DNA of 64,000 nt from Candidatus Omnitrophota bacterium (GTDB lineage: Bacteria > Omnitrophota > Gorgyraeia > Zapsychrales > Zapsychraceae), in the NCBI GenBank assembly GCA_020053475.1, contig JAGVNC010000084.1:4201-68200 (forward strand). The letters are read 5' to 3'. A program made the translations under genes and the position numbers. Numbering within the stretch: the first letter of the stretch is position 1; every line of letters begins with the position of its first letter. The notes beneath the pieces were generated by a model. That model was not told the origin of the DNA. It made no database searches and saw only the letters and a program-made list of their open reading frames with translations. Shown piece after piece: positions 7,260 through 48,842 of this stretch.

Positions 7260-7267
7260 TTTAAATT

Positions 7268-7316: not shown

Positions 7317-7356
7317 GAGGCGAGCACCGAGAGACTGATGACTCTTTACTCAACAA

Positions 7357-31616: not shown

Positions 31617-32147
31617 TTACCAATCCTCTAATGTCCGCTCGACAATGCGACGGCCCAAATCTTCCACCGCTTCTTCCAAGGCGTCTTGCTCTGAGATCGC
31701 GCCCGGCCCGGAAACCAAATAGGTAGCTTCTCCCGTAAACCCCGATTCCACCCAAGAAATTTCCTGTTTGGTTGCGTCCCACATTTCCAAATTAACACCA
31801 ACATGGACGCGGTATTCTTGCACATCGTCATTATCCGTAAAACGCAACGCGGTTTTGTCATAGCTGGCAAGCTCTCCTCGTAGGACGAGATCCGCTGTTT
31901 CAGGAGTCGTGATTTTCAAATACCCGTTAAATAAAAATCGGTCAATGATGGACTTGCGCACTTCGACTTCCAGCAAAGGAAAGTAAACGTTACGCTTGTT
32001 CTCTTTGGTATAATCAATTTTATTCTTAAAAGGCTCGATATAAATCGTTTTGATGTGGCTGGGGAGAGTCGATCTTGTCGTATACCCACAACTGAAAAAG
32101 ACAACGGGGGCAATAGCCAGAACTATTAAACAGAGATATTTTTTCAT
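31617..32147 (-). CDS. lptE: LptE/RlpB-like LPS-assembly lipoprotein
   Basis: Lipobox VFFSCG, 176 aa, and position upstream of holA as in E. coli. Confidence 0.45.
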   Translation of the reverse strand: MKKYLCLIVLAIAPVVFFSCGYTTRSTLPSHIKTIYIEPFKNKIDYTKENKRNVYFPLLEVEVRKSIIDRFLFNGYLKITTPETADLVLRGELASYDKTALRFTDNDDVQEYRVHVGVNLEMWDATKQEISWVESGFTGEATYLVSGPGAISEQDALEEAVEDLGRRIVERTLEDW

Positions 32148-33103
32148 TGAATTTTTTGATTAAGCTGTTGGATTTTTTCCAAAGCCTTGGCAGCCCAGAC
32201 TGTGTTCTCAAAGCCATCCACAACGGCTTGATAATAAACTTTGGCCGCTTGATAGGATTTTTGTTTTTCATAAAATTGGGCGATGAGAAAAGCGTTTTGG
32301 GCCTCTTTATCGTTGAGGTGCTGGATGTTGACCTTGGCTTCGTCTGAAAACTCGGCATCCGGATAAATCGACACAAACTCTTTAAATTCCTTTGCAGCTG
32401 CCTGAGTGACTTTCTGGTCGTATTGCGCGTCTGTAGACCGCTTCGCGTCGGCAACGGCAATTTGATATTTGGCGGCTTTGACCCATTCGCTATCCGGATA
32501 ATCGTTGATTAATTTTTCAAATTCGTCACGCGACTCCTGATACATCCCTTTTTCCAGGAAAAACAGACCAACCTTATATTGGGACGGTGCGGCCAATTCC
32601 CCGTACGGGGCATTTTTAATCACCGTTCGAAAGACATCGATGACATTATAATCGCCTCCGACAACGGCATTCACAAATTTATTTTGGCTGTTATTCCCCT
32701 CTAAAAGCTTAATGCCGATATCGTATTCTTTTTTGATAATATCCCGGGCACGCTCACTAAAGGGATACCGATCGATCACCAGTTGATATTGTTTAAAGGC
32801 CTGGGATAAATCACCTTGCTCCTCGGAAATAAGGGCAATGTAATATTGAGCTTCGGGGGCCTCGCGGGCGCGGGGATAATGCTTGATGAGCTTATTCAAT
32901 TCGCGGGTGGCCTCTTGATACTGCTTGGACTTATAAAAATCTAACGCCAACTCAAGCTGTTCGCCCGGGGTGTCCTTAACGGAGAATTTGGGGTTTTCCC
33001 ATTTATTGGTTTCCGGCGTCCACATCCAAAACGCGAAAACATTGTTTGTGGGGACCAATAAAAAGACTACTAATAAATATATAAATATTATCTTACGTAT
33101 CAT
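32144..33103 (-). CDS. secreted TPR-repeat protein (BamD/YbgF-like)
   Basis: Signal peptide, then repeated A..Y..A.....G....A...Y TPR-like units; 319 aa. Confidence 0.4.
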   Translation of the reverse strand: MIRKIIFIYLLVVFLLVPTNNVFAFWMWTPETNKWENPKFSVKDTPGEQLELALDFYKSKQYQEATRELNKLIKHYPRAREAPEAQYYIALISEEQGDLSQAFKQYQLVIDRYPFSERARDIIKKEYDIGIKLLEGNNSQNKFVNAVVGGDYNVIDVFRTVIKNAPYGELAAPSQYKVGLFFLEKGMYQESRDEFEKLINDYPDSEWVKAAKYQIAVADAKRSTDAQYDQKVTQAAAKEFKEFVSIYPDAEFSDEAKVNIQHLNDKEAQNAFLIAQFYEKQKSYQAAKVYYQAVVDGFENTVWAAKALEKIQQLNQKIQ

Positions 33104-33258
33104 TCCGCAAATTTAGCACACTCTCTTGGCTTTGTCAAATCCATAAAAAAGCTCCTATCCTCTTGCCATAGAATATTTAAGTTTAATTTACCCCACTTTA
33201 TTATGCGATCATCCCTGATCAATTAAATTTTCAGCCCCGGCTACCTACAACTGTAGAT

Positions 33259-33513
33259 CTACTCGACACGCTCGCAAGAAACCAAATCCCCACTCTCCCA
33301 TGGAGACAGGGGAGTGCCCTCCCCCAACTCTAACTTTTTTGCGGCCATATGAAACTCTTTTGTAGCCTTACAACGAGCTTCGGCTTCATTAGCGGCTTCC
33401 ACTTCATATATCCCTTTGTAACTGCTAGATCTCCAGTGAGGGGATTGTTCATCTATAGATTCTCCTTTTGCGAATTGCTGGAAGCGTTCCGAATATGCCA
33501 GCCTACCAATCAT
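33259..33513 (-). CDS. hypothetical small protein downstream of the giant gene (GC-shifted)
   Basis: 84-aa ORF in the GC-rich block; no recognisable motif. Confidence 0.2.
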   Translation of the reverse strand: MIGRLAYSERFQQFAKGESIDEQSPHWRSSSYKGIYEVEAANEAEARCKATKEFHMAAKKLELGEGTPLSPWESGDLVSCERVE

Positions 33514-33693
33514 TAGGTGTTACCATTCGGAACGCCTCCGAATTTCCCTCCGGATTTCCCAACCTCTCCCACAGGCACGGAACAGATCAGGTGAAGCAAC
33601 GTGGTGTCATCCAAGGGTTTGAAACAGATGGTAGTCTGCGGAACGCGAAACGGCTCATGGTTCTCAAGGTTAAAGGCGTTTCTGTTGCTTTCG

Positions 33694-36600
33694 TCACAGT
33701 CTGGTTTTCGTTGGGATGGGGGGGGACTTAGGCGTGATGGTGCTGGGTGTGACGGTGATGGGTGTGTCATGGGTATAATAGGGGGAAGCGGCTCCCACCG
33801 TATCGATGGCTCGGCAGCGGAGAAGCGCCTGGGCTTTCTCTGACAGGGTGTTCAAATTCCACACGACCGCCTCCCCTGCAGAATGCGTGCCAATGAGATT
33901 CCAGTCTCCTCCGTACACCTCGTACACCTCCTCCCCGATCTCGATGGCAGGAGGAACCGCAGCGGCCAGTGCGCGCTCAAATGCAGGAGCCGGCGTATCG
34001 AGTTGGAAGGTAGGGAAATCTTCGAGGAACAAGGTCAAGGTCTCTCCTGGCAACATGGTGATTGCCGTACTATTCGTTAAGGCATAGTTACAACTGCTCG
34101 CCGGGCCGCTCAGGCAGAACCCTTTCGCGGTGTGATCGAGCTTCGCCGCGGTATCTGGGCCGGGAAGAAAGAGGAGGGCTTCTCCGGTTGTCGAACTCCA
34201 ATACCCGCTCAACGGCGGCCATCCGACCTGCATCGTCGCGAAGCCTGGGATGAGAACAGAAGCGAGGGTTCCATCCATCGACGTGGAGATCCACGTATCG
34301 AAGGAAGGATTGTAGTAACGCGTGTCAAAGAAGCGTACTTCATTGAGCGTAATGGGCGGACCGGTCCGGATGATGCGCAGGAGCGGGCTCTTGGCATTCG
34401 ACCATGCGTGGATCTCGGCCGCCCATCCTGTCCCTTGCTTGGCCACGGCACGCCAGAACGCATAGGTGGCGCTACTCTCTTGGAGCGTGAAGTCGAAAGT
34501 ATGCCATCCGTCTGCGTAGAAGGAGAGCGCCACCGCTGGGCCAGCCGCCCCTGGATACGCAGTATTGAAGACATAGCCCGTGGGATACTGATGGTTGCAC
34601 GTGACTCGTCCAATCGAAGCTGAGAGTTCACAATTAAGACTGATGTCCGTCTGCGGAGCCCAGGACAGATAATTATCATTGGCGATGATGGATCCTGGGT
34701 ACGTTGGCAATGAAGCACCGCTGTTACCATAATAAATAGCATAGTTGGTTTTGCCTTGAATATCTGCAAGAAACGTGATGGTTCCCTGGAGAAGACTGGC
34801 ATAACTGGGCACTTCATTTCCACCCTGGCCACAGGGCGCATCGATGACGCGTATGGCATTGGCCTGACCACCAAACATCGATAAATCCAGGAACACCGGC
34901 GTGGCAGGCCGTGGAATCGGCTGAGGAAGTGGATCGGTGAATGTCACGGTTCGACACGACTGCCATGTCCCTAACGACGCCTCGACGTCATACATCAGCA
35001 AGTCACCTGGAGAATCGGAAGACCCGGAGCAGGCGAGCGCAACCGATTCAAAAAACGTGCCCTTGCAGACGGCACCATTGCAAGAGAGCGACGTGGGAAT
35101 CGTCGGGGGGGTGTTGAGCGTAAAGGTCACCGACGTGAAAGCGGGATGGCCCACCGCATCGTTGGCGAACAGGGTCAGCGAATGGGGGCCGGCAGTGACT
35201 TGCAGGGTGGTCGGCGCACAGGACGGCAGGGCCTGCGGCGGACTCTCGTCGAGCGTGTACCAACATGACGCGACCCCACTGAACGCATCCGTCACGGTAT
35301 AGCTGAGGGGAATCGGGAGCGCGGCATACGTGATGTCCTTTGGCGACTCCAAGGTGATGGCCGGCGGTGTGATATCGAGCGCGATGCTCGCGACCTGGAT
35401 GGTTTCGCTATTGTTCACGATGTCCTGGGAGTGGAATCTGAGGTAGTTCGTCCCCTCTGTCGAGATGAAAAACGGCGCAGAATACGTTAGGAACGGGACA
35501 CACGAATTGTTTTGATCAAGACAATAGAGAGTCGTCGCGCACCCGGCGCCCCCGGCATCGGTACACGTCAACGTCACCAGCGCATCCGTACTCTGCCAGC
35601 CTTGGGGCACGCTGGCGGAAGTCACGGGCGGCAGGTTATCAATGGTAAAGGCCACGGTGGTTGCGGTTTCATGCCCCAGGACATCGCTCGCCCCAATCGT
35701 CAGGTTATGGGGGCCGGGGGAGAGTTGTTGAAGGATGGTGTGCTCACACGCCGGGAGCGTCTGCGCCATGCCGTCATCCAGCGTGTACCAACAACTCTGG
35801 ATGCCACTCAATGCATCGGCCGCTTCGTAGACCACTGGAAGATCAGCCAGCGGGTAGACACTGTTGTTGGTGGGGGACTCGATGACAAGTGACGGGGGTG
35901 TTTTATCGAGCAAGACAATGTGCGACTGGATGGTTTCCAGATTACCGGCGTTATCTTTGGCTTGGATGCGGAGATAATGTGTTCCCTCATTGGAAATCAG
36001 CACGGGGGCTTGATACGGCGTCAGAGGAAGACAGGCATTCTCTTGATCGACGCAATAGTCTATCGTCGCGCACCCGGCACCCCCACTATCGGTACACGTC
36101 AAGGTCACCAGCGCATCCATACTCTGCCAACCTTGGGGAAAGACGCCGGAGGTCACGGGAGGAAGATTATCAATCGTCAGCGTGCCGGATGACACAAGCG
36201 GTTGGCTCTGCTGTCCTTCCGCAGACGCCACACAACGCAAATGCACATTCTCTATTGCATCAAATGCCGACGTATCCCAGAGCACGGAACCGCCAGCCGG
36301 GTGCGTACCGATCGGCGTCCAGGCCTTGAAGGTCGGCACGAGGGGCGCGACAAAGCGATCATACGCTTCCACACTTTGTGGCCCCATCGCCTGCTCCAAC
36401 GAGCCGGTCGTGAAGATCAGCCGCCAGGGATGGATGGTGCCAGACGGGAACGGCTGCACCGACAGCGGATACCAGGTGCCGCCAAAGCTCGGTTGGCCGC
36501 CATTGTTACTGACCCCCAGGGGGTGCGGCAGTTGCGAGGCATAGGTCATCGCGAGCACTTGTTCCAGAGAAAGATTAGATTCGGATTTCGAGATCGCCAC

Positions 36601-39600
36601 GCGCGTCCGCTCCTGGTCGCCAAAGGTAAGCACCGGCGCACTGGCCGAGGCCGTGTAGACACTGGGATTGCTGCCGTAACTGTAAGAGAACGGCGTGGGG
36701 CCGGTTGAGCCGCCGGTGTAGAAGGCCACCGTATCCCCCCACGCCGTGCCTCCATTAAAGGAGGAGCGTACATCAATCCAGGGGCTGCCACGGTAGAATC
36801 GGAACGCCTGCCACGCGAGCCCTCCGGGCTTGGCGCAAGTGACCTCCACGACGACTGGTCCACTGGCCGTCACCGAACAGGCGGCATCGGTGACGGTGCG
36901 ATCAAAGATGGCGGTGCCAGGCCCTGTCCATGTGGTATTGGTCAACATGCCCAGCGACCCATCCGAATCCGGAGCGTTTTCATAATCCCACCCGATGAGC
37001 CCTTGCGTGAGGGAAAACGGTTTGTACACGAGTTCGTGGATGACGCCGCCGGCATGGTCTAGCCAAGCTTTCACCACCGCATTTTCGATGGTACAGTCTG
37101 CGCTGACACAATCGCCGGTGTGCACCAGATCGGAACTGTACGTCGGGGCGCCTTGATCGGTGGTGGCGTAGTAGATCCCGTACGCCACCGGCGTGCCAGC
37201 GGGACGCGTGGCCAGGAAGACCAGGCGGGTGCTCTGATACGTCGTGCCGACCAGCGTCGACTCATACGTTTGCGAAGGAATTTCTTGGCCGCCGGCGCCA
37301 CAGGCCGCATCGACGACCCGTAAGGAATCTTTGAAGGGCGCCTCGGTCCAGACCGAGGCATCCAACATGAGGTCCACCGGTTCCGACTCATAGGCCAGGG
37401 GGGAGGCCGTATCTAATGTCACTGTGAAACACTTCGGAAACGCCGGATTCCACCAGCCGGGTTGTTGCACATCTTGTTCATCTTCATGCCATTCTTCGGC
37501 GGTATACACGAGCGGGTCCTGCTGTGCGTCCGTGGCGCCGCTGCAAACCACATCGATGGTCCCGGAAAACAGCCCGGTGCAATTGCCGTCATTACACTGC
37601 ATCGCGGTCGGCGGTGTCGGGGGGGTGTTCTGTTGGCACGCCAACGTACAGTCTTGCGTGCCGGCCATCACGCCTTCACAGGCAGGGTCAGCTGTACAAC
37701 CCGCAGCATACAGCGACGACCGACAGATCGGCGCGTTGTCTTCTCCGGTACAGATGGCGGAACACGTATCGCTAAAGTAGGTCTTCCCGACGGCGCATCC
37801 CGGAAGATCGCTGCCAGGAAACACCTGATCGCAGGACGCATCCGCACCGCACGCTGCGGCACAAATTTCCGCCACATCATCTCCGCTACCTCCCTGCCAG
37901 TCGCATTGGAAGATTGCAAGCGATGAGCACGCGTCCTGTTCTTTTTCATCACAGTATTGCGGAGCCCCACAGGTGCTCTCGGCCGACAGGACACAATCCG
38001 TACCGGTCACTTCGCAGGCCCGTTCGTTGAACGAGCCGCCGTGTTCACACGCATCTTCATGCGGCGTGGTTTCATCGCACGACGGGGGAGCCCCGAATGC
38101 CTCTTCGCAACTGCCGCCACCGCTACACGTCATCGTGGTGCCAGCACATTGCAGTGACGATTCGAGTTCGCCATTGCGGCAGGCTTCCCCATACGTGTTG
38201 CACGACCCATCCGAGCATGTCTGTCCTGTCGGAGATGCCTCCACGCAATTGCCACCATTGACAGAGCACGCGGCTCCGCAACAGAATCCATTTTTCGCAG
38301 GAACCCCAAGACCGCAGTCGCCGTCGTTGCAATCCACAAATCCATCACAATCATTGTCAACACCGTCGTTGCACAGTTCTGCTTGGAGACAGGAGACGCA
38401 CACGTTACTCAGCGGATTGCTGTCTGGTTTCTTGCAGTAATTGCCCGGGCCGCAGTCCGCGTCCGCCCCGCAGTTCAGCACCAGATAGTTCTCACTATGC
38501 TCGCCAACGTCGAACTGGCCGTTCTCGTTCGTGTCCCAGTACTCCCACAGCTTGCCCCCGTAGAACCCGTACCCGTAGGGATTCCCGGCCGGGTAATTGG
38601 AGAGGCACAGGATGTCGGGGAAGCCGATCTCGTTCACGGGGCCCGTGTACGTCTTCGTGACCGTCACCGCGTTCTCGACCTTCTCGTCGCAGTCCCCGTC
38701 GTAGCAGCCGTAGGACATGGTCTGGGCGAAGTTCACCATGTCGCTCACGAGGTAGCCTGATTTCACCTCGCAGCGGAACCACACCTTGTACGTGTCGCCT
38801 GCGAGCATGTAGTGCTCCAGATAGCCGTCGTTGTCCACGTCCGCATGCTTCCACTGGTAATTGTTCGCGCAGTACGGGCCGTACTTTATGGTGTCGACGT
38901 ACCCGGAGTATGGCGGCTCGTTTACGACGATCGTCCAGTTGTAGCATTCGTTCTCATCGCCGCCGCAGATGTTCTCGTCGGTCTGCCCGTCGCAGTTGTT
39001 ATCCACACCGTCGTGCGGACACACTTCCGTTGTTGGACCCTGCCCTCCGGTGCACGGGCCCCACTGGCCGCTTACGCATGTCTGCGTGCCGAAGGAGCAT
39101 GCTCCTACATCTGTTCCACAGGGCTTGGTCTGACCGTTCACACAACTGCACCCTTCATCCGTGATCCCGTCACAATTATCATCGATGCCGTTGCAGAGTT
39201 CCTGCGCGCCGGGGGTGCCGGTGCTGCAGCTGGATTTGCATTGGGACGTCGTCGGATTGCACCCGTAGGCGCAGTCTTGGACCAATGTTTCCTGAAGAAT
39301 CGTGTCCTGAAGGGCGCAAATACCTTCCATTGGAATGGTCGAGCTGCAGCCATACTGGTACTGGGTGGTGAGCACATAGACATCGTCATTTTTGCAGTAC
39401 GGTGATGAGGAAAAACTGTAGTTTTGCGCTTCACACACTGTTTCGCAAGGATAATAGCCGCATGGGTTCAGTTGGCATGCCAGCCATCCTCCACTGATTT
39501 CACCGATTGCAAGAGCAGAGCAAAAGCCACAATTCAGGAGATCAAAGAACACTTTTAATCCGATCCCTTCTAACAGCATCGTCCCGTAAATCTTAAACGC

Positions 39601-40608
39601 CTTGGCTTTGTTAAGAAGGTCCGGAATCTGCTTGACGAGTTCGCCCAGATCTGCGGCATTTTGAATGAGGCTGGCCGCATCATAAATGTCGGTCCCTTGC
39701 CCACACTTCCCTAAGATGTTTTGCTCGACGAAATCGCTTAGTGTTTGAGAAAAATCTGCAGCCGTGTCGTAATCAACCACCGCGTTGAGTTGATATTGAA
39801 AATTTTGTAACCCATTCAAAATATCCTGTTTACTTTCGCAGACTGTCAGTGCGGCATCTTGCACTAATCCAGTCATATCTCCGAGTAAATACGTAATCGT
39901 ATGCACGGCAGGATTATAGGAAGGATCGGCTTGACCGTTGAACCACTGCGTAAGTGAGATGAACAGATCATACAGTTCATTCGATCCGGCGCCGCACGCA
40001 AAGGAGCAGGGATTGTGGCTATTAAACCAGTCAACGAAATAGCCAAAACACACCGCGCTATTGCAGTCCACTTGGCTTTTCTGGGTGCCAGCATCGGGCG
40101 GGGGGGTAACAACCCGTCGGCTTTTGATGTCCACATCAACTCGTCCCTGTGGTGAATACAATCGCAACAGCAGCGTGCCCTTGTCATCTTTGACCACATC
40201 ACACAAGGCGACCCCTGAGGTGCCTTGCGCCTTATTGTGATGCTGGATCAGATACATGCCGGAGAGTTGTTCTGAAAAGAAGAGCGCGACCGTCATGGTT
40301 GCTTCTGGCGTGTCGAGCTGCACCGCGCGTTGGGTAGGGCGGAATCCTAACTCTTGGGCATAGCGATAGGCATCGCGAACTTGCGGATCTTCGCGAAGGA
40401 ACGTCGTCACTTCATCTGCCGTGAGATGACGAACTGTTGCACCAGAGAGTGTCTGTGATGGAAAGGCCGTGGTGCCGCGGGGTGCCGGTTCTGTGTCAGA
40501 AGCCGCGAGTCGAGGAGAGGCCATAAGAAAAATGGCCACGACGAGCGTCACTGCGAGACACCGTGTTGAGGTAGGACATCGTGCTCCAGCTTGACAAATG
40601 GGGAGCAT
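33694..40608 (-). CDS. giant secreted cysteine-rich repeat protein (2304 aa). It has tandem chitobiase-C/Ig-like modules plus MopE-type C-x-DG-x-DNDCDG repeats
   Basis: Uninterrupted 6.9 kb ORF with ATG at 40608 and an N-terminal signal peptide. Two or more tandem ~190-aa repeats (NLPPVTS..QGWQS.DALVTLTCTD.GGAGCAT..YC.DQ.N.C.P...Y.AP..IS.EGT.YLR). Repeated ELCNDGVDNDCDG / CNGIDDNCDGITDEGC / HDGVDNNCDGQTDEN motifs and dense Cys. GC and third-position GC are markedly higher than neighbouring genes. Confidence 0.8.
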   Translation of the reverse strand: MLPICQAGARCPTSTRCLAVTLVVAIFLMASPRLAASDTEPAPRGTTAFPSQTLSGATVRHLTADEVTTFLREDPQVRDAYRYAQELGFRPTQRAVQLDTPEATMTVALFFSEQLSGMYLIQHHNKAQGTSGVALCDVVKDDKGTLLLRLYSPQGRVDVDIKSRRVVTPPPDAGTQKSQVDCNSAVCFGYFVDWFNSHNPCSFACGAGSNELYDLFISLTQWFNGQADPSYNPAVHTITYLLGDMTGLVQDAALTVCESKQDILNGLQNFQYQLNAVVDYDTAADFSQTLSDFVEQNILGKCGQGTDIYDAASLIQNAADLGELVKQIPDLLNKAKAFKIYGTMLLEGIGLKVFFDLLNCGFCSALAIGEISGGWLACQLNPCGYYPCETVCEAQNYSFSSSPYCKNDDVYVLTTQYQYGCSSTIPMEGICALQDTILQETLVQDCAYGCNPTTSQCKSSCSTGTPGAQELCNGIDDNCDGITDEGCSCVNGQTKPCGTDVGACSFGTQTCVSGQWGPCTGGQGPTTEVCPHDGVDNNCDGQTDENICGGDENECYNWTIVVNEPPYSGYVDTIKYGPYCANNYQWKHADVDNDGYLEHYMLAGDTYKVWFRCEVKSGYLVSDMVNFAQTMSYGCYDGDCDEKVENAVTVTKTYTGPVNEIGFPDILCLSNYPAGNPYGYGFYGGKLWEYWDTNENGQFDVGEHSENYLVLNCGADADCGPGNYCKKPDSNPLSNVCVSCLQAELCNDGVDNDCDGFVDCNDGDCGLGVPAKNGFCCGAACSVNGGNCVEASPTGQTCSDGSCNTYGEACRNGELESSLQCAGTTMTCSGGGSCEEAFGAPPSCDETTPHEDACEHGGSFNERACEVTGTDCVLSAESTCGAPQYCDEKEQDACSSLAIFQCDWQGGSGDDVAEICAAACGADASCDQVFPGSDLPGCAVGKTYFSDTCSAICTGEDNAPICRSSLYAAGCTADPACEGVMAGTQDCTLACQQNTPPTPPTAMQCNDGNCTGLFSGTIDVVCSGATDAQQDPLVYTAEEWHEDEQDVQQPGWWNPAFPKCFTVTLDTASPLAYESEPVDLMLDASVWTEAPFKDSLRVVDAACGAGGQEIPSQTYESTLVGTTYQSTRLVFLATRPAGTPVAYGIYYATTDQGAPTYSSDLVHTGDCVSADCTIENAVVKAWLDHAGGVIHELVYKPFSLTQGLIGWDYENAPDSDGSLGMLTNTTWTGPGTAIFDRTVTDAACSVTASGPVVVEVTCAKPGGLAWQAFRFYRGSPWIDVRSSFNGGTAWGDTVAFYTGGSTGPTPFSYSYGSNPSVYTASASAPVLTFGDQERTRVAISKSESNLSLEQVLAMTYASQLPHPLGVSNNGGQPSFGGTWYPLSVQPFPSGTIHPWRLIFTTGSLEQAMGPQSVEAYDRFVAPLVPTFKAWTPIGTHPAGGSVLWDTSAFDAIENVHLRCVASAEGQQSQPLVSSGTLTIDNLPPVTSGVFPQGWQSMDALVTLTCTDSGGAGCATIDYCVDQENACLPLTPYQAPVLISNEGTHYLRIQAKDNAGNLETIQSHIVLLDKTPPSLVIESPTNNSVYPLADLPVVYEAADALSGIQSCWYTLDDGMAQTLPACEHTILQQLSPGPHNLTIGASDVLGHETATTVAFTIDNLPPVTSASVPQGWQSTDALVTLTCTDAGGAGCATTLYCLDQNNSCVPFLTYSAPFFISTEGTNYLRFHSQDIVNNSETIQVASIALDITPPAITLESPKDITYAALPIPLSYTVTDAFSGVASCWYTLDESPPQALPSCAPTTLQVTAGPHSLTLFANDAVGHPAFTSVTFTLNTPPTIPTSLSCNGAVCKGTFFESVALACSGSSDSPGDLLMYDVEASLGTWQSCRTVTFTDPLPQPIPRPATPVFLDLSMFGGQANAIRVIDAPCGQGGNEVPSYASLLQGTITFLADIQGKTNYAIYYGNSGASLPTYPGSIIANDNYLSWAPQTDISLNCELSASIGRVTCNHQYPTGYVFNTAYPGAAGPAVALSFYADGWHTFDFTLQESSATYAFWRAVAKQGTGWAAEIHAWSNAKSPLLRIIRTGPPITLNEVRFFDTRYYNPSFDTWISTSMDGTLASVLIPGFATMQVGWPPLSGYWSSTTGEALLFLPGPDTAAKLDHTAKGFCLSGPASSCNYALTNSTAITMLPGETLTLFLEDFPTFQLDTPAPAFERALAAAVPPAIEIGEEVYEVYGGDWNLIGTHSAGEAVVWNLNTLSEKAQALLRCRAIDTVGAASPYYTHDTPITVTPSTITPKSPPIPTKTRL

Positions 40609-40740
40609 TACAACGCCTCTAAATCTTTGGGGTTAATCCGCCACTTCCCAATCTTAGTAGCGCGGATGTGTTTTTCCCGAATAAGTTTACGAACTCTGTA
40701 TTCAGTTAACCCAATCTGTTTAGCAACCTGCTCTCTACAG
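40609..40740 (-). pseudogene. start-less excisionase/HTH_17-like DNA-binding ORF abutting the giant gene (TAATG stop/start overlap)
   Basis: Minus-strand translation between an in-frame TAG and TAA reads GIFNCREQVAKQIGLTEYRVRKLIREKHIRATKIGKWRINPKDLEAL. This has the Xis/MerR-type helix-turn-helix-wing pattern. There is no ATG/GTG/TTG in frame. Confidence 0.4.
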
Positions 40741-40970
40741 TTAAATATCCCCTAAGCAATATAATATAGCCTTTATTTTAGATTGTTTAACATGATTTCA
40801 CATCATACCACATTTAAAATTTTATTAACAATCAATTCTTCCCTGGCATCATGGAATGGTTTTTCTTTATTTCCTATCTACTCAATCCATTCCGGCTTAA
40901 TTTTCCAATCGCCTGTTGGGAAAACTTTTTCCGTTGTCAACCATATCATTTGGGGATCCTTTCGACAGCG

Positions 40971-41489
40971 CTATAGCCCTACTTTCAACCCATACATCTT
41001 AATCAATTCCAGAAAGGCTTCGGCGTTGCCCTTGGCGTCGTCAACCGGATTGTGTGTGTGCTTGGTTTTGCGTAAATGCTTAAAATTTTTGGAGGTATCC
41101 CTTACCAACCCTTTATAAAGCGAACCTAAATTCATCGATGAATGGCCAAAAGGGTTCTTGCCAAGAAAATGATGGAAATACCAATTAATAAACTGCCAGT
41201 CAAAACCATTATTGTCGGATATGAATATCGGCCGCCCTTTTATATTGTCAGCCAGCCATTTATCGAAAGATTCCATGACAGTTTTGGAGTTGTCGAAGTT
41301 CAATGTTTCTTCCCGGCTGAATCCCGAAACCTTTAATGCCTCCGGCTCCCATTTTCCCGAAATCGGTTTTAACTTTTTATAGAAAGTCCTTGATAGCGAC
41401 GGCTCAACAATAATTGCTCCAAAGCAAACCATCGAATAATCGCCCGGGATAGGGCCGTCGGCTTCAATATCGACAATGACGTAGCTCAT
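40971..41489 (-). CDS. stand-alone DEDDh 3-prime-5-prime exonuclease (DnaQ-like fold)
   Basis: Exo I VIVDIEADG, Exo II FISDNNGFDWQF, Exo III HTHNPVDDAKGNAEAF; 172 aa. Confidence 0.65.
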   Translation of the reverse strand: MSYVIVDIEADGPIPGDYSMVCFGAIIVEPSLSRTFYKKLKPISGKWEPEALKVSGFSREETLNFDNSKTVMESFDKWLADNIKGRPIFISDNNGFDWQFINWYFHHFLGKNPFGHSSMNLGSLYKGLVRDTSKNFKHLRKTKHTHNPVDDAKGNAEAFLELIKMYGLKVGL

Positions 41490-41595
41490 AATATCTCAGT
41501 TCAAGTTATGTAAGTTTCTTGTAGCCGTTACCATACATAAAAATGCACGAATGTTACAGAAAATGGAATGTTCATGCGTTGAAGGCTGTGTTTCC

Positions 41596-42534
41596 TTATC
41601 CCCACGGTCCCGGGGCTTTCCATTCGCCTGGTATGTTGGCTTTATCGTTGATGGCCAATATGACCGGCTCAAGAAACTCGTTTATTTTCTGCATGATCGC
41701 GGGAAAATGATCGGTGATCTTTTTTTCCCTGATTTTGCGCAGGTAGGCCTGCCATTGTTTCTGCCTGTTTTTATCTTCGAAAAACTCCCCCGTAAAAACC
41801 ACCGGATTTTCCGGCAATGGTGTTTCGCGCCTTGAAAACGCAGCCTGCACGGCCTTAAAGAGAACTTTCCCGGTGAAATTATCGGAAAGAGCAAGGGAAT
41901 AAATATCGTAGAAATCCTTCATGCGGCTGTTCACGAAACTTAATTTGATCATGGCCTCGAACTTTTCCGCGATCATGCTTTCCAGCGAGTAGACCTTTAA
42001 CCGGGGATGCCGGTCCTCCAGGATAGTCGGGAAATCCATCTCAAGCGGTTGAGGAACAATGTCGTCTCCGAAGCCCACATCGATTTGTAATATTTTTCGC
42101 GCCTTTCCTAGAGTTGCCTTGATTTTCAGCCTTATGCCATGATACTCTGCTCCTTCTTTTATGTCTTCTGAATGTACGGATCCGGGATCAAAGATTATCC
42201 CGTCAGCGTATTCAATGCGGGCGATGTCCTGAATGATCGCTTCCAGGCCACGGTGTGAATTCTTAATGCGCTGCGCCAGGAAATCAATGTCGATGGTGGG
42301 CCGTGAATGAGGAACGTCATGACAGACCAGCAGAAGCCCTCCTTTGAGCACAAAAGAGCCGGAATGCTTGCTGACAGACAGACGGTATAAAAACCTCTCC
42401 TGCATGTAGCGTAATAAAAGGGCATCAAAGTCGATGCCCTGGGATCTGGCCAGATTCAATAATTTTGCCTTTATGGAGGCCGGTTTATTTTTGATGTTTT
42501 CTATCATCGTTGTTAAATCATGGCGTTCAGCCAC
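41596..42534 (-). CDS. AbiEii/AbiGii-family nucleotidyltransferase toxin (type IV TA)
   Basis: FLYRLS...FVLKGGLLLVCHDVPHSRPTIDIDFL GG-NTase motif; 312 aa. Paralogous to the partial gene at 1-931. Confidence 0.7.
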   Translation of the reverse strand: MAERHDLTTMIENIKNKPASIKAKLLNLARSQGIDFDALLLRYMQERFLYRLSVSKHSGSFVLKGGLLLVCHDVPHSRPTIDIDFLAQRIKNSHRGLEAIIQDIARIEYADGIIFDPGSVHSEDIKEGAEYHGIRLKIKATLGKARKILQIDVGFGDDIVPQPLEMDFPTILEDRHPRLKVYSLESMIAEKFEAMIKLSFVNSRMKDFYDIYSLALSDNFTGKVLFKAVQAAFSRRETPLPENPVVFTGEFFEDKNRQKQWQAYLRKIREKKITDHFPAIMQKINEFLEPVILAINDKANIPGEWKAPGPWG

Positions 42535-43118
42535 GTCTGAAGCACCGGTTTGACGCGGCAGACGGCGGCAAGTTCCAGGAGTTTTTCAATATTGCGGTTC
42601 TTCCGTTTCAGGTATTCCGTCAGGGCCTCTTTGGCCGTGTCCACTCCAAGTTTGTTTCGATAGCGAAAGCAGTCGCAGATCGTTTTCTCCGGAGAATAAA
42701 TCCTGATCTTCTGATTTTTGACCATGATGGTCTCTACACCGGCATGAAACTGTTTTTCGGAAAAATAGTAGAATTCAACCGGCGGGTATTTAATTTTGGG
42801 ACGCCAGGCTTTCCGATGAATGGCCACAGAAACAACCGAAGGATTGAACGTTGTCAGCTGGTAATAGGAAAGCGCGGAAAGCAGGCAAATAACCCCTTCC
42901 GGAACGGCCTGTGCAATGTCAATAAAACTTTGGTGAGAAACAACAGAAACTTCACTCAGTCTGTAAAGTCCAGTTTTGACTTTATTGATAATCCCTTCGT
43001 CAACCATGGCTCGGATATCTCGCGGGTGCACTCCTTTGGCAAGAAGTTCGCCTGTTCGCGCGTAGCCTTTATGGGCATTGAATATTTGTCGGATTTTCTG
43101 ATATTTCTGATTTGTCAT
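42513..43118 (-). CDS. AbiEi-family antitoxin
   Basis: 201 aa, immediately upstream of and overlapping AbiEii by 22 nt. N-terminal wHTH-like region. Confidence 0.6.
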   Translation of the reverse strand: MTNQKYQKIRQIFNAHKGYARTGELLAKGVHPRDIRAMVDEGIINKVKTGLYRLSEVSVVSHQSFIDIAQAVPEGVICLLSALSYYQLTTFNPSVVSVAIHRKAWRPKIKYPPVEFYYFSEKQFHAGVETIMVKNQKIRIYSPEKTICDCFRYRNKLGVDTAKEALTEYLKRKNRNIEKLLELAAVCRVKPVLQTWLNAMI

Positions 43119-43221
43119 GACATTTTTATATGGATAAACTAATAGGCGGATTATAACATATGCCTATGAAACTATCCAGTGTAAATTTTTGTTTGGGGCC
43201 CGATAACGCAACCCTCTCTCT

Positions 43222-44547
43222 TTACTTAACCTCCCAAAGGTGTTTGCGGGTTTCTTCCACAACAACCCCGCTTAAGACAAGCAAGGAGATCAAATTGGGA
43301 ATGGCCATGCAGGCATTGGTAATATCCGCCAACGACCAGACAATCGGCAATGACAAAACCGATCCGGCCATGACCGCCCCCACCCAAAGATAGCGGTAAG
43401 GCTTAATGGCTTTGCTGCCAAAGAGATATTCACAGGCCTTTTCGCCGTAATACGACCATCCCAAAATCGTGGCAATCACAAACGTAAAAAGGCTCACGCT
43501 TAAGACAATAGGCCCGATGACAGGGATGTCATCAAACGCCGCTTTGGCCAAACCAGCCCCATTTAAGCCTAATGTCCAGGCCCCGGAATTCACATACACC
43601 AAACCTGTCAGGGCACACATGACGACCGTGTCCCAAAACGTCCCCGTCGATGAAACGAGCGCTTGACGCACAGGGTTTTTGGTCTGGGCCGCTGCCGCCA
43701 CAATCGCGCCACTTCCCATCCCTGATTCGTTGGAGAAAAGTCCACGGGCGACACCATAACGGACGGCTTCCTTCATCGTGGCCCCCAAAAATCCGCCGAT
43801 CGCGGCCTGGCCCGTAAAAGCGCTTTGAAAAATCAACACAATGGCTTGGGGAAGCGTATCAAATTTTAAAACCAAGAGAATCAGGCATCCTAAAATATTA
43901 AAGATGGCCATGAAAGGAACCAGCGTTTCACACGCTCGGGAAATCGATTTGATGCCTCCCAAAATCACAGCGCCCGTTAACACCATGATGACTAGGCCCG
44001 TGATCCAATGGGGGATATGAAACGTTTCATACACTAGCACAGCCGCCGAATTGGCTTGGACCATATTGCCGATGCCGATGGCTGTGATGGCCGTAAAAAC
44101 CGCAAACAAAACACCCAGCCATTTGCAATTCATCCCCTTCTCCAACACGTACATGGGGCCCCCGGCCATGGCTCCATCCTTGGTCTTTACGCGATATTTC
44201 GATGATAATAAAGCTTCGGCGTATTTCGTCGAGATGCCAAACACGCCTGTAATCCATAACCAAAAAATGGCACCCGGCCCGCCGGAAGCCACCGCAGTGG
44301 CCACACCGACAATATTCCCTGCGCCAATCGTCGCCGCCAACGCCGTCGTCAATGCCCCGAATTGGCTGACATCCCCTTCCCCTTCTTTGGATCGTTCGAA
44401 GGAAATCTTAATGGCCTTGCCGATGTAACGTTGAATAAATCTTAAACGAAATGTTAAAAAAAGATGTGTCCCGCATAAAATCGCCAACGTCCAGGGTCCC
44501 CAAACCCAATTGCTTAGTTCCCCTAGAAATTTTTCCAACTCATGCAT
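43222..44547 (-). CDS. alanine/glycine:cation symporter (AGCS family)
   Basis: ATG at 44547 is preceded by GGGAGG. MHELEKFLGELSNWVWGPWTLAILCGTHLFLTFRL is the family N-terminus. The ORF track's longer frame (to 44634) reads through the upstream hairpin module. Confidence 0.8.
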   Translation of the reverse strand: MHELEKFLGELSNWVWGPWTLAILCGTHLFLTFRLRFIQRYIGKAIKISFERSKEGEGDVSQFGALTTALAATIGAGNIVGVATAVASGGPGAIFWLWITGVFGISTKYAEALLSSKYRVKTKDGAMAGGPMYVLEKGMNCKWLGVLFAVFTAITAIGIGNMVQANSAAVLVYETFHIPHWITGLVIMVLTGAVILGGIKSISRACETLVPFMAIFNILGCLILLVLKFDTLPQAIVLIFQSAFTGQAAIGGFLGATMKEAVRYGVARGLFSNESGMGSGAIVAAAAQTKNPVRQALVSSTGTFWDTVVMCALTGLVYVNSGAWTLGLNGAGLAKAAFDDIPVIGPIVLSVSLFTFVIATILGWSYYGEKACEYLFGSKAIKPYRYLWVGAVMAGSVLSLPIVWSLADITNACMAIPNLISLLVLSGVVVEETRKHLWEVK

Positions 44548-46141
44548 AGGGCCTCCCTGTCCCGCCAAGGCGGGACTTAAATGATCCGTCATTGATCTTA
44601 AAAATGGATGCAGGTTTATTATACCAAGAGCCAAAAAATCTTTTGAGGAATAATATCAAAATTAATAGCCCTGTCCCACCCAGATAATAAATGACCACTT
44701 GCCAAAAATTGACACTCTTAATCAAGAAGTAGGCCCCGGGGAGTTGATCCATCAAATAGATGCTGGCGACAACCACGTTTAACAGTAATTTGAGGCAAAG
44801 GGCAAACATCTGAGCACAATATCCCGAGATAAAGGCGAACGCTAACAGTCCTAATCCTAACGCCACGACCGCACTCATCAGAGGAATCACAATTAAATTG
44901 GCCACAAAAATGATGGGAGTAACGATTTGAAAATAATAGGCAATGAATCCCGCTAACCCTAACCACACGGATAAAGAAATGCCCAAGGCATTGATCAGCC
45001 ATTTGGCATATTGACTGGAAAAGGAAGACGCAATCAATTCGAGCCGGGGCCCTACTAAAATAATAATCAGAACAGCCAAAAAAGATAACTGAAACCCAAT
45101 ATCAAACAAATGAAAAGGATTGATCAATAATAACAGCAGTCCGGCTAATCCTAATGTATTGAACGAATCCGTTGGCCTCTCTAGCAGAAACCCCAAGAGA
45201 AAAACAATGATCATGATTGTCGCCCGTACCACCGAAGGCGGCGATCCTGTTAAGACACAATAAACAATCAATAATCCAATGGCCAGCCAAAGCTGTGTTT
45301 TGCGGCCGATCGGGAATATTTTGAGAATCAACAGGAATAATCCCGCGACAATGCCGACATTAAATCCGCTGATGGCCAAGACATGCACGGTCCCTGTATG
45401 TTCAAACAAGTCCATAATATGCGTCGGGATGGCCGCCCTGTCTCCCAAAATCATCGCACTCATCAAGCCCGCCTCGGCAGGAGACAGATATTGGTCAAAA
45501 ACGCTTGTCAGATGATCCCTCCAGCGAAAAATAGCGGCCAGCCATTGATATTGATATCCCGTTTTCAAAATTTCGACCGACGCTTGGCGCCCGACGCTTA
45601 AAATCCAATAGACGCCCTTCATTTCCAAATAATCCGTGTAGGAAAAATTCCCATCGGAGAAATTATACGGGCGGTGCAACTTGCCTTCGATACGCAAAAG
45701 GTCACCGCAGTGAATCTCTTTGTCCTGAAACACATTGACCAACACTTTTCCGCTCTTTGGGCGCCAGCCCCAGGGCGTTTTAATTTCTTCAACCTGCAGC
45801 GTAAACACTTTTTTCTTCTTGTTAAAAAAAGACCGTGTTTCGACGTCCGTGGCCACCGTGCCTTTGAGCGTTGTTAATTTTCCTGAATAATATCGCGCCA
45901 CGTGATGAATATGGTCTCGCGGGAGAACCTCAACATTTTGTGCATAAAGAAAACTCACGCCGATCAAGGCTGCGCCCAGGCAAACATTCCAACAAATGGG
46001 CCGATGCCGGCCCAACATGGCAACGAAAAGAAACAAACAGCTTAACGCCACGACGCCGGAGAATGAGGCAGAAATGTAACGATGACAAATAATCCCAATC
46101 GCCCAAAACATAAAAATTCCGACAAAAGGCCGTTGGGTCAT
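44540..46141 (-). CDS. comEC: ComEC/Rec2-family DNA internalisation channel (competence domain only, no metallo-beta-lactamase domain)
   Basis: DUF4131-like N-terminus, then the competence domain with HVLAISGFNVGIV; 533 aa. ATGA overlap with comEA. Confidence 0.75.
   Translation of the reverse strand: MTQRPFVGIFMFWAIGIICHRYISASFSGVVALSCLFLFVAMLGRHRPICWNVCLGAALIGVSFLYAQNVEVLPRDHIHHVARYYSGKLTTLKGTVATDVETRSFFNKKKKVFTLQVEEIKTPWGWRPKSGKVLVNVFQDKEIHCGDLLRIEGKLHRPYNFSDGNFSYTDYLEMKGVYWILSVGRQASVEILKTGYQYQWLAAIFRWRDHLTSVFDQYLSPAEAGLMSAMILGDRAAIPTHIMDLFEHTGTVHVLAISGFNVGIVAGLFLLILKIFPIGRKTQLWLAIGLLIVYCVLTGSPPSVVRATIMIIVFLLGFLLERPTDSFNTLGLAGLLLLLINPFHLFDIGFQLSFLAVLIIILVGPRLELIASSFSSQYAKWLINALGISLSVWLGLAGFIAYYFQIVTPIIFVANLIVIPLMSAVVALGLGLLAFAFISGYCAQMFALCLKLLLNVVVASIYLMDQLPGAYFLIKSVNFWQVVIYYLGGTGLLILILFLKRFFGSWYNKPASIFKINDGSFKSRLGGTGRPYA
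44552..44576 (-). promoter_or_regulatory. Family-C hairpin-plus-SD module upstream of the AGCS symporter start
   Basis: Minus strand reads GTCCCGCCTTGGCGGGACAGGGAGGCCCT-ATG. Confidence 0.4.
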
Positions 46142-46735: not shown

Positions 46736-48376
46736 TCATCTCTCTCCATTTTTAAGGACGACAAGGCCTTCCTTATTGGTATAAGCAAGAAAATACTTTG
46801 AATCTTTCGCCTTAAGATATTTTCTGAAGAGGAACTCTTCTGCTAAGCCCTTCTTAATATTTTCATCTTTAGCCTGACCAATATAAATCTGCACGGGACG
46901 CTTAGCTTCATTTTCAACGATATCAAAGGAAAAATCCGGTTCCTTCTTATGCTGATTCTTAAAGCGTTCCAATTGGGAAACCAATTGTCCCCAAGAACGG
47001 TATTTTGCAGACATCTCACGATTAAACTGAAAACTCATCCAAGCATTTAAAATGATACTCATAAGTAAGATAGTAAAAAGAAGGCTTTTCTGATGATCAA
47101 ATCTCTTGATCTCTATATTTTTGTAGGAAGATGTAAAAGTGATTAAAAACATGGTTAAAAAAAGAGCTAAAGGATAAAAATGATGCAATTGATACGTCAA
47201 ATAAACGAAAGACCTATCAGATACTCTCCCCAATAAAACAAATAAAAGGTAACACCAAAAAAGGATAAAACTTAATGACCGAATGGGATAAAGAGGACCC
47301 TTCTTGAAGGTCTCTAATTCTGAATTCTTGTTGAGTAAACTAAAACGTACTATTCTATAAAGACCTATCAAACAAAGACAAACCAACAAAAGATTAAGGC
47401 TGCTCAAAAAAGGATTGGCAATCAGGTCATATACAAATTTTTCCCGCGTCGGCAAATAAAGCATTGGTTTGTCACCGGAATTGATTTGAATAAAAACAGG
47501 GAAAATAAGCGATTGAATAAAGAAATTTAACGTAGCGAATAGCTGCTTTATCAGAATAAACCCGTCAAACTTTATCGCCTTGCTAAAAATTTCAACACGC
47601 GAATGAACAAAATAATCCATAAAATTGGCAACAAAATAACTGACCGCAGGGATACAGAGTAGGGAAACGGATTTTCGCAGGCCATGCCCTCTACTCTCCT
47701 CTTTGCTTACACTTTTCAACAGAAACATGACAAACACAATGTTGACCAAAATAGAAAATTCATAAGTCAAACACCCCAATGTAAGGAATAAAACCGCTAA
47801 CGATAAATGCCGTTGAGCATTTTGGGGGAAGTGCAGAAAAGAAATAAAATGCTGCAAAGATTGAAGAATAAGAATCAAAGCCAGAAGATATCCGTTTACA
47901 TGATGCCAAATGACCATCTCTTGGCTTAGAGCCGTGACCGAAAAATTTAATAAAAATAGCACCAAGATAAGATTTGGAGCTATAGCCTTAAATAAACGTA
48001 ACAGCTGGCCAATCAAAATCAGATGAAAGATTATCCCCAGCATCTGCCAATAGATAAAGTTATAACCAAAAAATAATTCTTCAAGGCTTAACAACAAAAA
48101 GAAAATAGGCCGGAAAAGAAGTTGGTCACCACCCGACAAAAACATGTTGCGATTGTAGGAGAGACTGAAGGCAAGTTTATCGAAAAAATGATCGAAAGCT
48201 GACGTTTGGATAAGATAAGTAAGCTGATCTGCCCGAGCGACATGAAACAAAGAAGGGAAGTAAACCACGCAATTGGCTAACAGAAGAATTACAAGACCAA
48301 TCCAATATTTATTTTGGGACTCACTATTATCTTTGTCAGAATTTATTTGTATCTTATCTCCTCCCATAAGCTCCAT
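46736..48376 (-). CDS. polytopic membrane protein, third divergent TMTC/PMT-like GT-C paralog (no TPR tail), AT-rich
   Basis: 546 aa, about 12 TM helices, and loop motifs ARADQ and GGDQLLFRPIFFLL echoing the YRPL motif of the 8640 and 10667 paralogs. Codon usage is visibly more AT-rich than neighbours. Confidence 0.35.
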   Translation of the reverse strand: MELMGGDKIQINSDKDNSESQNKYWIGLVILLLANCVVYFPSLFHVARADQLTYLIQTSAFDHFFDKLAFSLSYNRNMFLSGGDQLLFRPIFFLLLSLEELFFGYNFIYWQMLGIIFHLILIGQLLRLFKAIAPNLILVLFLLNFSVTALSQEMVIWHHVNGYLLALILILQSLQHFISFLHFPQNAQRHLSLAVLFLTLGCLTYEFSILVNIVFVMFLLKSVSKEESRGHGLRKSVSLLCIPAVSYFVANFMDYFVHSRVEIFSKAIKFDGFILIKQLFATLNFFIQSLIFPVFIQINSGDKPMLYLPTREKFVYDLIANPFLSSLNLLLVCLCLIGLYRIVRFSLLNKNSELETFKKGPLYPIRSLSFILFWCYLLFVLLGRVSDRSFVYLTYQLHHFYPLALFLTMFLITFTSSYKNIEIKRFDHQKSLLFTILLMSIILNAWMSFQFNREMSAKYRSWGQLVSQLERFKNQHKKEPDFSFDIVENEAKRPVQIYIGQAKDENIKKGLAEEFLFRKYLKAKDSKYFLAYTNKEGLVVLKNGER

Positions 48377-48647
48377 ATGATGGTTATATTAGCCTTGATG
48401 ATATAGGGATTGCCGACAGTTGTCCAAGTGGTAGGCGTTGTAATATTCGTAGTAACATCGGTGGCGAGAGCTAATGGACAAAAGATAAAGAGAAAAAAGG
48501 TTAAAAGTCCGAAAACAATCTCGCGCTTTCGCTCAAAACCTTTTCTAATTGAATTAAGGAATGAATACATAGTTTTCCGCAAAAATAAAGCCAAAGAAAG
48601 GAATATTGTGGCTATATTCCGAAGAACCTGAATGGGGTAGTTTAAGT

Positions 48648-48760
48648 TTACCCTAGAATCACAAAGTTAATCAGCTTCCCGGGGACATAAATAAACTTTT
48701 TGACGGGCTTATGCTGAACAAATTCCTGGATCTTGGCATCCCCCAAGGCGAAATAAACGG
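48648..48760 (-). repeat. ghost copy of the leuS 3-prime end (direct repeat / att-like scar)
   Basis: Encodes [36 protein letters not shown] versus the LeuS C-terminus ...[32 protein letters not shown]. About 80 percent nucleotide identity with 49524-49636. Confidence 0.6.
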
Positions 48761-48842
48761 GTCAACTCCCTTTCCCTCGCTCTTCATTATACAATATACC
48801 CCAAGTCATGAGGGTTGGCAAAAAAATAAATGGGCCCCAGGC

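Follow-up and report, generated by a model that had tools for sequence, protein, structure and literature searches.

A large Cys-rich secreted protein of an Omnitrophota bacterium: a possible horizontally acquired, DPANN-type, glycan-binding adhesin

Results

A large secreted protein encoded between comEC and bamD

We examined a 64,000-nucleotide stretch of a Candidatus Omnitrophota genome (assembly GCA_020053475.1, contig JAGVNC010000084.1; hereafter the window), focusing on a large gene on its minus strand that lies between comEC and bamD and encodes a secreted, Cys-rich protein (hereafter the window protein). A first-pass annotation, made from the sequence alone, had described this gene as a single uninterrupted open reading frame (ORF) with a signal peptide, and both points were borne out. 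The protein has one hydrophobic segment by the Kyte–Doolittle scale (aa 11–37) and no further transmembrane-like segment, and the signal peptide is probably cleaved after aa 36. A Shine–Dalgarno-like GAGG lies 7 nt 5′ of the ATG. The gene and the parts of its product, in protein order, are as follows.

33694–40608, minus strand: whole ORF, 2,304 codons plus stop, no interruption
40501–40608, minus strand: Sec-type signal peptide, aa 1–36 (MLPICQAGARCPTSTRCLAVTLVVAIFLMASPRLAAS before the predicted cut, D after it), the sole hydrophobic segment
39229–40500, minus strand: N-terminal head, aa 37–460, of no known family; predicted small alpha/beta part, then helical part, then Cys-rich end
38959–39228, minus strand: two MopE-type motifs (C-x-DG-x-DNDCDG-x-(T/V)DE; PF11617) around a Cys-rich hairpin region, aa 461–550
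38404–38958, minus strand: insert domain, aa 551–735, with two calcium-loop-like motifs (DxDxDG / DxNxNG) and no family
37606–38403, minus strand: Cys-rich region, aa 736–1001, 35 Cys, beginning with a third MopE / acidic double-disulfide motif
36163–37605, minus strand: module A, aa 1002–1482; small Cys-containing lead-in, DUF2341/DUF4861-like beta-sandwich, galactose-mutarotase-like supersandwich, Ig-like end
35632–36162, minus strand: tandem module 1, aa 1483–1659; OmpL47-type beta-barrel domain plus Big_7 Ig domain
35101–35631, minus strand: tandem module 2, aa 1660–1836; copy of module 1
33739–35100, minus strand: module A′, aa 1837–2290; old paralogue of A
33694–33738, minus strand: Pro/Thr/Lys-rich C-terminal tail, aa 2291–2304, plus stop; no sorting signal recognized

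The window protein contains 110 Cys (4.8%), 107 of them after the signal segment, and is strongly acidic (247 D+E against 91 K+R). No Cys follows the hydrophobic region of the signal in a lipoprotein test. About 75% of its length matches no Pfam family, a whole-protein sequence search of the PDB gave two spurious short matches only, and scans for a promoter and a terminator stayed at chance level. We judge that the ORF is not an internal chimera because every domain junction recurs in at least one independent sequence: collinear homologues cover aa 73–1680 (P0002), aa 57–1169 and 1832–2297 (P0069), and both A and A′ (P0067).

Domain layout of the N-terminal half

The MopE-type motifs fall in three stretches only, at about aa 466–485, 526–546 and 743–766, all within the N-terminal third (PF11617, 43.6 bits against a cut-off of 27, best at aa 466–485). 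The third, at 38311–38382, also resembles the NCBIfam acid_disulf_rpt model below its threshold (25.5 against 41 bits). The first-pass annotation had placed a dense array of these repeats in the C-terminal third, which contains none, and seems to have mixed the order along the forward strand with the order in the protein. That third consists of Ig-type modules and a 450-aa module without a Pfam match. Likewise, the N-terminal region without a recognizable motif, put at about 700 aa, extends over about 460 aa.

P0069 shares 78% identity with the segment at aa 461–550 and 77% with the insert (P0002, 55%), and the Cys-rich region is 69–71% identical to both. EF-hand models matched the insert only below threshold in Pfam. 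At E≤10, Pfam placed no family on the head (aa 37–460) or on aa 769–1003, 1002–1482 and 1842–2304.

Tandem OmpL47/Ig modules

At least two tandem modules with a TLTCTD.GGAGCAT..YC.DQ motif had been recognized in the first-pass annotation, which described them as near-identical, about 190 aa long and of a chitobiase-C/Ig-like pattern. The two modules and their motif stand, and the domain label was close: each is an OmpL47-type barrel domain, whose model accounts for the motif (NCBIfam NF047446, 101.7 bits against a cut-off of 40, four stretches, best at aa 1499–1562), followed by Big_7 (PF17957, aa 1572–1637, a marginal pass at 25.2 against 24.1 bits). No CHB_HEX_C-type family was found by Pfam for the whole protein at E≤1, so that of the families proposed for an HMM search MopE and Big_7 were recovered above their cut-offs and CHB_HEX_C was absent. 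The modules are 177 aa each and share 53% protein identity over 185 aa (E 2e-67). The underlying DNA repeats (35395–35646 and 35926–36177, spaced by 531 nt) match at 71% of positions over 252 nt; the figure is 80% in the best window of 150 nt and 74% where repeats of about 150 bp and 85% identity had been proposed as signs of recent duplication. Divergence to 53% protein identity and 71% DNA identity indicates an old tandem duplication, and we rejected a recent one.

Modules A and A′ have a predicted sugar-handling fold

Two large modules, A and A′, went unnoticed in the first-pass annotation. Each has about 450 aa, and the two have diverged to 26–28% identity in a self-comparison. The window A′ is 59% identical to the A′ of P0067, 58% to P0068 and 42–43% to the module of P0069. 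For module A, an alignment of 25 sequences gave an AlphaFold2 model (pLDDT, the per-residue confidence score, 69.7; pTM, the predicted template-modelling score, 0.71) that is well determined at residues 50–200 and 240–285. Its best structural match is a GH38 alpha-mannosidase (score 17.4, 310 residues aligned), followed by BDI_1685 (13.5), the PL26 and PL4 rhamnogalacturonan lyases (13.4 and 13.3), the YidC P1 domain (12–13), aldose-1-epimerases (11–12.6) and GH174 fucanases (11.5–12.3). Foldseek agrees with these matches. In this model, module A is a beta-sandwich joined to a galactose-mutarotase-like supersandwich, a fold associated with sugar handling.

The DUF2341 (PF10102) and DUF4861 (PF16153) models did not match A or A′ directly at E≤10. 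A profile of the modules retrieves, at profile positions of about 45–165, one protein with DUF2341 (P0072, Pfam 6e-47) and two with DUF4861 (P0073 and P0147). Remote relatives of the modules carry DUF2341, DUF4861, Laminin_G_3, GH31, CARDB and dockerin domains, company that, to judge from these domain assignments, is a signature of carbohydrate-directed extracellular proteins.

Close homologues with a named organism are DPANN archaea

A word-indexed protein search returned the protein's own entry (P0001, JGI, on a 77,850-bp contig) and P0002, which is 56% identical and collinear over aa 73–1680. The remaining matches share only MopE or Ig domains with the window protein, and those with MopE motifs are mostly from Myxococcales, Nitrospirae and Proteobacteria. 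This search missed P0069, and a head query, whether as alignment or as single sequence, returned nothing, not even its own entry; its lack of hits is thus not evidence of absence for the window protein. Metagenome contig scans with the head and with A′ gave no matches. A HMMER profile of the A/A′ alignment, searched against 1.84 billion cluster representatives, gave 192 hits. Five of these fell below 1e-30: the window protein itself, P0002, P0067, P0068 and P0069.

The two close homologues with a named organism (P0069 and P0067) are both from DPANN archaea, a point that the first-pass annotation, which ran no database search, had missed. P0069 (MBI4020735.1, 1,686 aa) is from a Candidatus Aenigmarchaeota archaeon, and its contig encodes the ribosomal proteins L24e, S28e and L7Ae, which indicates that the contig itself is archaeal. 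Its identity to the window protein is 55% over aa 57–1169 and rises to 77–78% over aa 461–735, the segment richest in G+C at third codon positions (GC3). At the DNA level, the window gene and the Aenigmarchaeota gene are 71% identical over 1,877 nt. P0067 (MBI4043233.1, annotated as an S8 family serine peptidase, 2,249 aa) is from a Candidatus Diapherotrites archaeon and carries A (61%) and A′ (59%) behind Peptidase_S8 and CARDB domains; the head is therefore exchangeable, and in this relative it is an enzyme. Both P0069 and P0067 also start with a hydrophobic segment. In both cases, the composition of the gene matches its surroundings: GC3 is 0.83 for the P0069 gene and 0.76–0.93 for its contig neighbours, and GC is 0.509 (GC3 0.511) for the P0067 gene and 0.485 for its contig. 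Overall, nine profile hits carry an organism name (two close, seven remote), and eight of these are DPANN, the groups including Aenigmarchaeota (two), Micrarchaeota (two), Diapherotrites, Pacearchaeota and Nanoarchaeota; the ninth belongs to Patescibacteria. The window protein belongs to a rare family whose organism-assigned members are DPANN archaea. The family is modular, with a variable head, a Cys-rich MopE-type stalk, Ig/OmpL47 spacers and one or two A/A′ modules.

The gene is a mosaic in its affinities, with aa 181–460 nearer to P0002 (55% against 43% for P0069) and aa 461–735 nearer to P0069. P0002 lies on a 5,312-bp contig (L001) of JGI metagenome 3300038466 and ends just inside the start of A′, 85 nt before the contig end. 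P0068, from the same metagenome, is an A′ fragment that runs off the start of a 3,360-bp contig (L060). Their positions suggest that the two are probably one gene split by assembly. On L060, the homologue has a GC of 0.511 against 0.385 for the remaining contig, and hence the family is GC-shifted in that low-GC host too. At 125–373 of L001, the reading frame of P0002 continues 5′ of its annotated start into a segment resembling a signal peptide (RRLILLLFFFLPSLVLAAPD), and translation probably begins at a GTG or TTG in that direction. The Aenigmarchaeota contig (L057) has further large genes of surface type in the vicinity: a divergent gene for a 1,002-aa FG-GAP/PQQ protein (6871–9879) adjoins the homologue, and a protein of at least 762 aa with TSP_3 and MopE motifs is encoded at the contig end (22209–24498).

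Nucleotide composition and codon usage

Composition was compared with the 43 other window ORFs of at least 150 aa. The large gene has a GC of 0.574 against 0.465±0.028 (z 3.8), a GC3 of 0.655 against 0.523±0.052 (z 2.5) and a second-position GC (GC2) of 0.506 against 0.361 (z 3.8). The highest GC3 of any other ORF is 0.622, in agreement with the first-pass claim that the gene is GC3-shifted relative to every other gene of the window; that claim has to be tempered, as much of the GC shift comes from the amino acids encoded and the first 450 codons are host-like. GC3 is indeed uneven along the gene: it is 0.49–0.55 in the first 450 codons and 0.75–0.87 in codons 451–750, with 0.75 in the 150-codon bin over aa 461–550 and the gene maximum, 0.87, in the insert.

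Relative synonymous codon usage (RSCU) of the large gene correlates at 0.74 with the genes of the Aenigmarchaeota contig and at 0.55 with host genes; the correlation between host and Aenigmarchaeota contig is 0.21. The RSCU distance is 0.69 in nt 1384–2766, the most deviant segment, and 0.335±0.074 among host genes. GC changes in a sharp step where the gene begins and ends.

An accessory island in a conserved Omnitrophota gene block

The genes flanking the large gene are bacterial and of diderm type (BamD, LptE, HolA, MurJ, UvrC, SecA, Lnt and LeuS). A search with BamD gave 55 loci, nearly all labelled Omnitrophota, with identity of up to 66%. From these matches we judge the host to be an Omnitrophota bacterium, an assignment that the first-pass annotation, which was not told where the DNA came from, had missed. 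A tblastn comparison of the window proteins with the 55 loci showed that gene order is kept (MnmG ... LeuS-ComEC-BamD-LptE-HolA-MurJ-UvrC). Most contigs with both ComEC and BamD have them side by side, usually with a gap of 150–300 bp. In the window, 11.4 kb lies between them, and none of the genes of this island was found at this locus in any of the 55 related loci, so that the synteny check proposed in the first-pass annotation came out as absence of the segment's genes from this locus in all 55 related genomes. Together with the Cys content and the 11.4-kb insertion, this supports the earlier description of a secreted, Cys-rich accessory protein. Within the island, the GC shift is confined to the large gene. 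Besides that gene, the island contains an alanine symporter, an AbiEi/AbiEii pair, an RNase T-like exonuclease, an HTH_17 frame and an 84-aa ORF; its extent and the features beside the large gene are as follows.

33104–44539: 11.4-kb accessory island between ComEC (44540–46141) and BamD (32144–33103)
40611–40751, minus strand: HTH_17 frame, 47 aa, excisionase-type DNA-binding (PF12728, 34.9 bits against 27), with no ATG, GTG or TTG start
40971–41489: RNase T-like exonuclease adjoining the AbiE pair, host-like GC
41596–43118, minus strand: AbiEii toxin / AbiEi antitoxin pair, host-like GC

The HTH_17 frame is AT-rich and ends in a TAA that overlaps the start codon of the large gene (TAATG). This overlap suggests that the large gene is translationally coupled to the upstream frame, perhaps a mobile-element gene in decay or a small regulator with a non-canonical start. 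The alanine symporter ORF (43222–44634, TTG start) overlaps the ComEC ORF by 95 nt (44540–44634), and its actual start probably lies further downstream.

Other small cargo was found at the ComEC–BamD junction in two related loci: a beta-lactamase-family gene in L052 (8684–9930), and an HTH_3/MqsA-like gene with an ORF of no known family in L020 (9016–9792). This marks the site as variable and suggests that the junction is a recurrent integration or variable site.

A second insertion, at 46736–49358 on the minus strand between LeuS and ComEC, likewise has no match in any of the 55 loci. An ORF6N (KilA-N-like) gene (48843–49358) lies in it, together with a 546-aa ORF without a Pfam match (46736–48376) whose GC is very low (0.358). 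Beside LeuS, a small AdoMet_dc gene (S-adenosylmethionine decarboxylase-like; 52086–52580, minus strand) is matched in about a dozen related loci; SpeD homologues with new functions, in bacteria and archaea, are the topic of PMC10407285.

Discussion

A putative glycan-binding adhesin of DPANN type

We consider it somewhat better than an even chance that the large gene encodes a horizontally acquired, DPANN-type, glycan-binding surface adhesin in an Omnitrophota bacterium. Under this proposal, the Omnitrophota lineage would have gained the gene by horizontal transfer, as cargo of the variable comEC–bamD island. The Sec system would export a very acidic extracellular protein, which many disulfides and calcium, bound by the acidic MopE and DxDxDG loops, would probably stabilize outside the cytoplasm. 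Modules A and A′ would bind glycans on the envelope of another cell, whether an S-layer glycoprotein, an exopolysaccharide or a wall polymer, while the Cys-rich stalk and the Ig/OmpL47 spacers would project the head, which would act at the bound surface. The protein would then serve a nano-sized bacterium, itself probably dependent on a host, as a factor for attachment or host interaction. An adhesin was among the candidate roles named in the first-pass annotation and fits the folds found here. Export across the outer membrane, stabilization by disulfides and calcium, glycan binding and the adhesin role are thus putative steps, drawn from the folds, from the domains that accompany them and from the way of life suggested for Omnitrophota and DPANN; the direction of transfer and its donor are likewise our interpretation.

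Several observations weigh against this proposal. For the functional part, the adhesin role rests on fold resemblance at 7–12% identity, a level at which the structural matches of the module permit no residue-level transfer, and the head, insert and Cys-rich region gave no assignable fold. The supersandwich fold is also known from catalytic domains (PL4, GH174) and, unrelated to sugars, from the YidC P1 domain. Pfam and NCBIfam scans of the window protein reported no sortase, LPXTG or PEP-CTERM family, the sole match related to the type IX secretion system (T9SS) was a meaningless one to the sortase PorU (11.1 bits against a cut-off of 420), and the protein has no C-terminal hydrophobic segment. 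A T9SS or sortase substrate was rejected for want of such a signal, and with no outer-membrane export or anchor signal found, the protein could remain periplasmic or be released. For the evolutionary part, only four or five close homologues exist, and over several regions the closest is P0002/P0068, from a low-GC metagenome organism. MopE, OmpL47 and Big are domains known mainly from bacteria, which weakens the direction of transfer. The GC2 deviation reflects a protein rich in Thr, Ala, Gly, Ser, Pro and Cys, and part of the GC shift therefore stems from amino-acid composition. No integrase was found among the island genes with Pfam, and screening of the island surroundings for att-like repeats, direct or inverted, gave only short ones at chance level. 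Finally, a DNA identity of 71% rules out direct transfer from the sampled Aenigmarchaeota lineage, which is a relative of the donor and not the donor.

Alternative explanations

The main functional alternative is that the protein is an extracellular glycan-degrading enzyme, a polysaccharide lyase or glycosidase, and not an adhesin, which we regard as unlikely. Either A and A′ would be catalytic supersandwich domains or the head would be a new glycan-active enzyme, and the protein would digest the envelopes of prey or host cells or environmental polymers.

The main evolutionary alternative, to which we assign a similarly small probability, is that the gene came from another bacterium or an unsampled third party, so that the DPANN homologues would be bacterial imports and the family itself bacterial. 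Matches to the MopE motif come mostly from Myxococcales, Nitrospirae and Proteobacteria, OmpL47 and Big are classic bacterial surface domains, one of the remote relatives is from Patescibacteria, and P0002/P0068 are GC-shifted in a low-GC host (0.51 against 0.385). However, the close homologues with an identified host are all DPANN, and there the gene composition matches the genome; the head, insert, A and A′ have no bacterial relatives among the named hits except for the one Patescibacteria protein; and the codon usage of the window gene leans towards the Aenigmarchaeota contig.

It is improbable that the protein forms a structural envelope or S-layer-like coat of the Omnitrophota cell without binding other cells. 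A large, acidic, secreted protein rich in beta-sandwiches would suit such a coat, but a core envelope component would be conserved, whereas this gene is absent at the locus in 55 related genomes, has only four other strong matches among the 1.84 billion cluster representatives and is, judged by composition, a recent acquisition; in addition, no anchoring motif was found.

Finally, an assembly artefact, with an archaeal fragment misjoined into a bacterial contig, might account for the sharp GC step, the archaeal identity of the closest named relatives and the lack of a record of the exact protein in the contig index, but it is very improbable given that both flanks lie in one conserved Omnitrophota syntenic block, so that two independent chimeric joins would be needed, that the first 450 codons are compositionally host-like, that the start codon, with its Shine–Dalgarno-like sequence, overlaps the stop of the AT-rich HTH_17 frame, that the same 77,850-bp contig is present in both JGI and NCBI sources and that the internal junctions all recur in independent homologues.

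Implications

Omnitrophota, DPANN and the candidate phyla radiation (CPR) comprise nano-sized organisms that are abundant and uncultured, and attachment to other cells is their presumed way of life. To our knowledge, their attachment molecules are largely unknown and poorly conserved. If a DPANN-type adhesin is indeed encoded here, it would offer a concrete protein for an envelope-binding assay and would imply that host-interaction genes cross the domain boundary among episymbionts of one habitat. The gene would represent a transfer between nano-organisms, one archaeal and one bacterial, that shows in its composition. The family is also small and tractable: its proteins have about 2,000 aa and not tens of thousands, their modular logic is clear, and their candidate glycan-binding module is foldable.

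A bolder version, which we offer tentatively and hold to be less probable than the adhesin proposal itself, is that a DPANN host-attachment protein was captured by an Omnitrophota nanobacterium, and that unrelated, ultra-small episymbionts of two domains both share and exchange a toolkit of head, Cys-rich stalk and glycan-binding A/A′ modules for gripping cells. If true, the A/A′ supersandwich modules would form a class of envelope-glycan receptors not described before, and the head (424 aa) would be a novel effector domain.

Comparison with known systems

The nearest relatives of the window protein share its parts in different combinations. P0069 resembles it in a collinear series of signal-type N-terminus, head, two MopE motifs, insert, Cys-rich region and A′-type module. 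It differs in having no A-type module and no OmpL47/Big_7 tandem, in ending in He_PIG/Big_9 Ig domains and in being archaeal. P0067 has A and A′ in the same order at its C-terminus, whereas its N-terminus carries a subtilisin-like protease and CARDB in place of a MopE stalk, and its A and A′ are adjacent without OmpL47/Ig spacers. More distantly, DUF2341/DUF4861 proteins share the '..IYYGN..A..P.Y' strand motif with the first beta-sandwich of A/A′; both are themselves families of unknown function.

Proteins with the PF11617 motif are abundant in Myxococcota, and MopE of Methylococcus binds copper, a property that cannot be transferred to the window protein from the motif. MopE-related proteins share the C-x-DG-x-DNDCDG-x-(T/V)DE motif, present in three copies in the window protein, and have no similarity to it outside the motifs. 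The motifs cover <3% of its length, and the label of a MopE-type repeat protein, applied to the whole protein in the first-pass annotation, is therefore unsupported; a copper-binding MopE function was rejected given three short motifs only. The OmpL47-type barrel domain (NF047446) is shared with OmpL47 of Leptospira, and orthology to that protein was rejected (NF047441 equivalog model, 49.5 bits against a cut-off of 250).

Large adhesin-like surface proteins have been proposed as attachment factors in Omnitrophota (PMC10066038; 10.1101/2023.11.21.568195), as have SPEARE proteins in DPANN (Nanohaloarchaeota), whose extracytoplasmic parts resemble bacterial adhesins (PMC6642349). The window protein shares with both the concept of a very large, mostly extracytoplasmic, multi-domain adhesion-type protein in an ultra-small organism. 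The giant ORFs of Omnitrophota are defined as exceeding 20 kb, encoding many transmembrane helices and having type II secretion or PilZ neighbours, and many of them are described beside a type II secretion locus (PMC10066038; 10.1101/2023.11.21.568195). Membership of that class was rejected for a gene of 6.9 kb whose product has one hydrophobic segment and whose neighbours are the HTH_17 frame, the exonuclease, AbiE and BamD and include no type II secretion locus. SPEARE proteins are defined by a serine protease, laminin-G/adhesion and type III restriction domains, and a transmembrane anchor (PMC6642349). Neither the Pfam and NCBIfam scans nor the hydrophobicity profile found a serine protease, laminin-G, type III restriction domain or transmembrane anchor in the window protein. 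A protease head occurs in its relative P0067. The likeness to SPEARE proteins and giant ORFs is one of concept, not of demonstrated sequence homology. As a type, large adhesin-like surface proteins that nano-sized symbionts have gained by horizontal gene transfer are already known. The family described here, with its head, Cys-rich region and A/A′ modules, is previously undescribed and rare, and what it adds to these systems is a specific modular architecture, the A/A′ module and an apparent link between DPANN and Omnitrophota.

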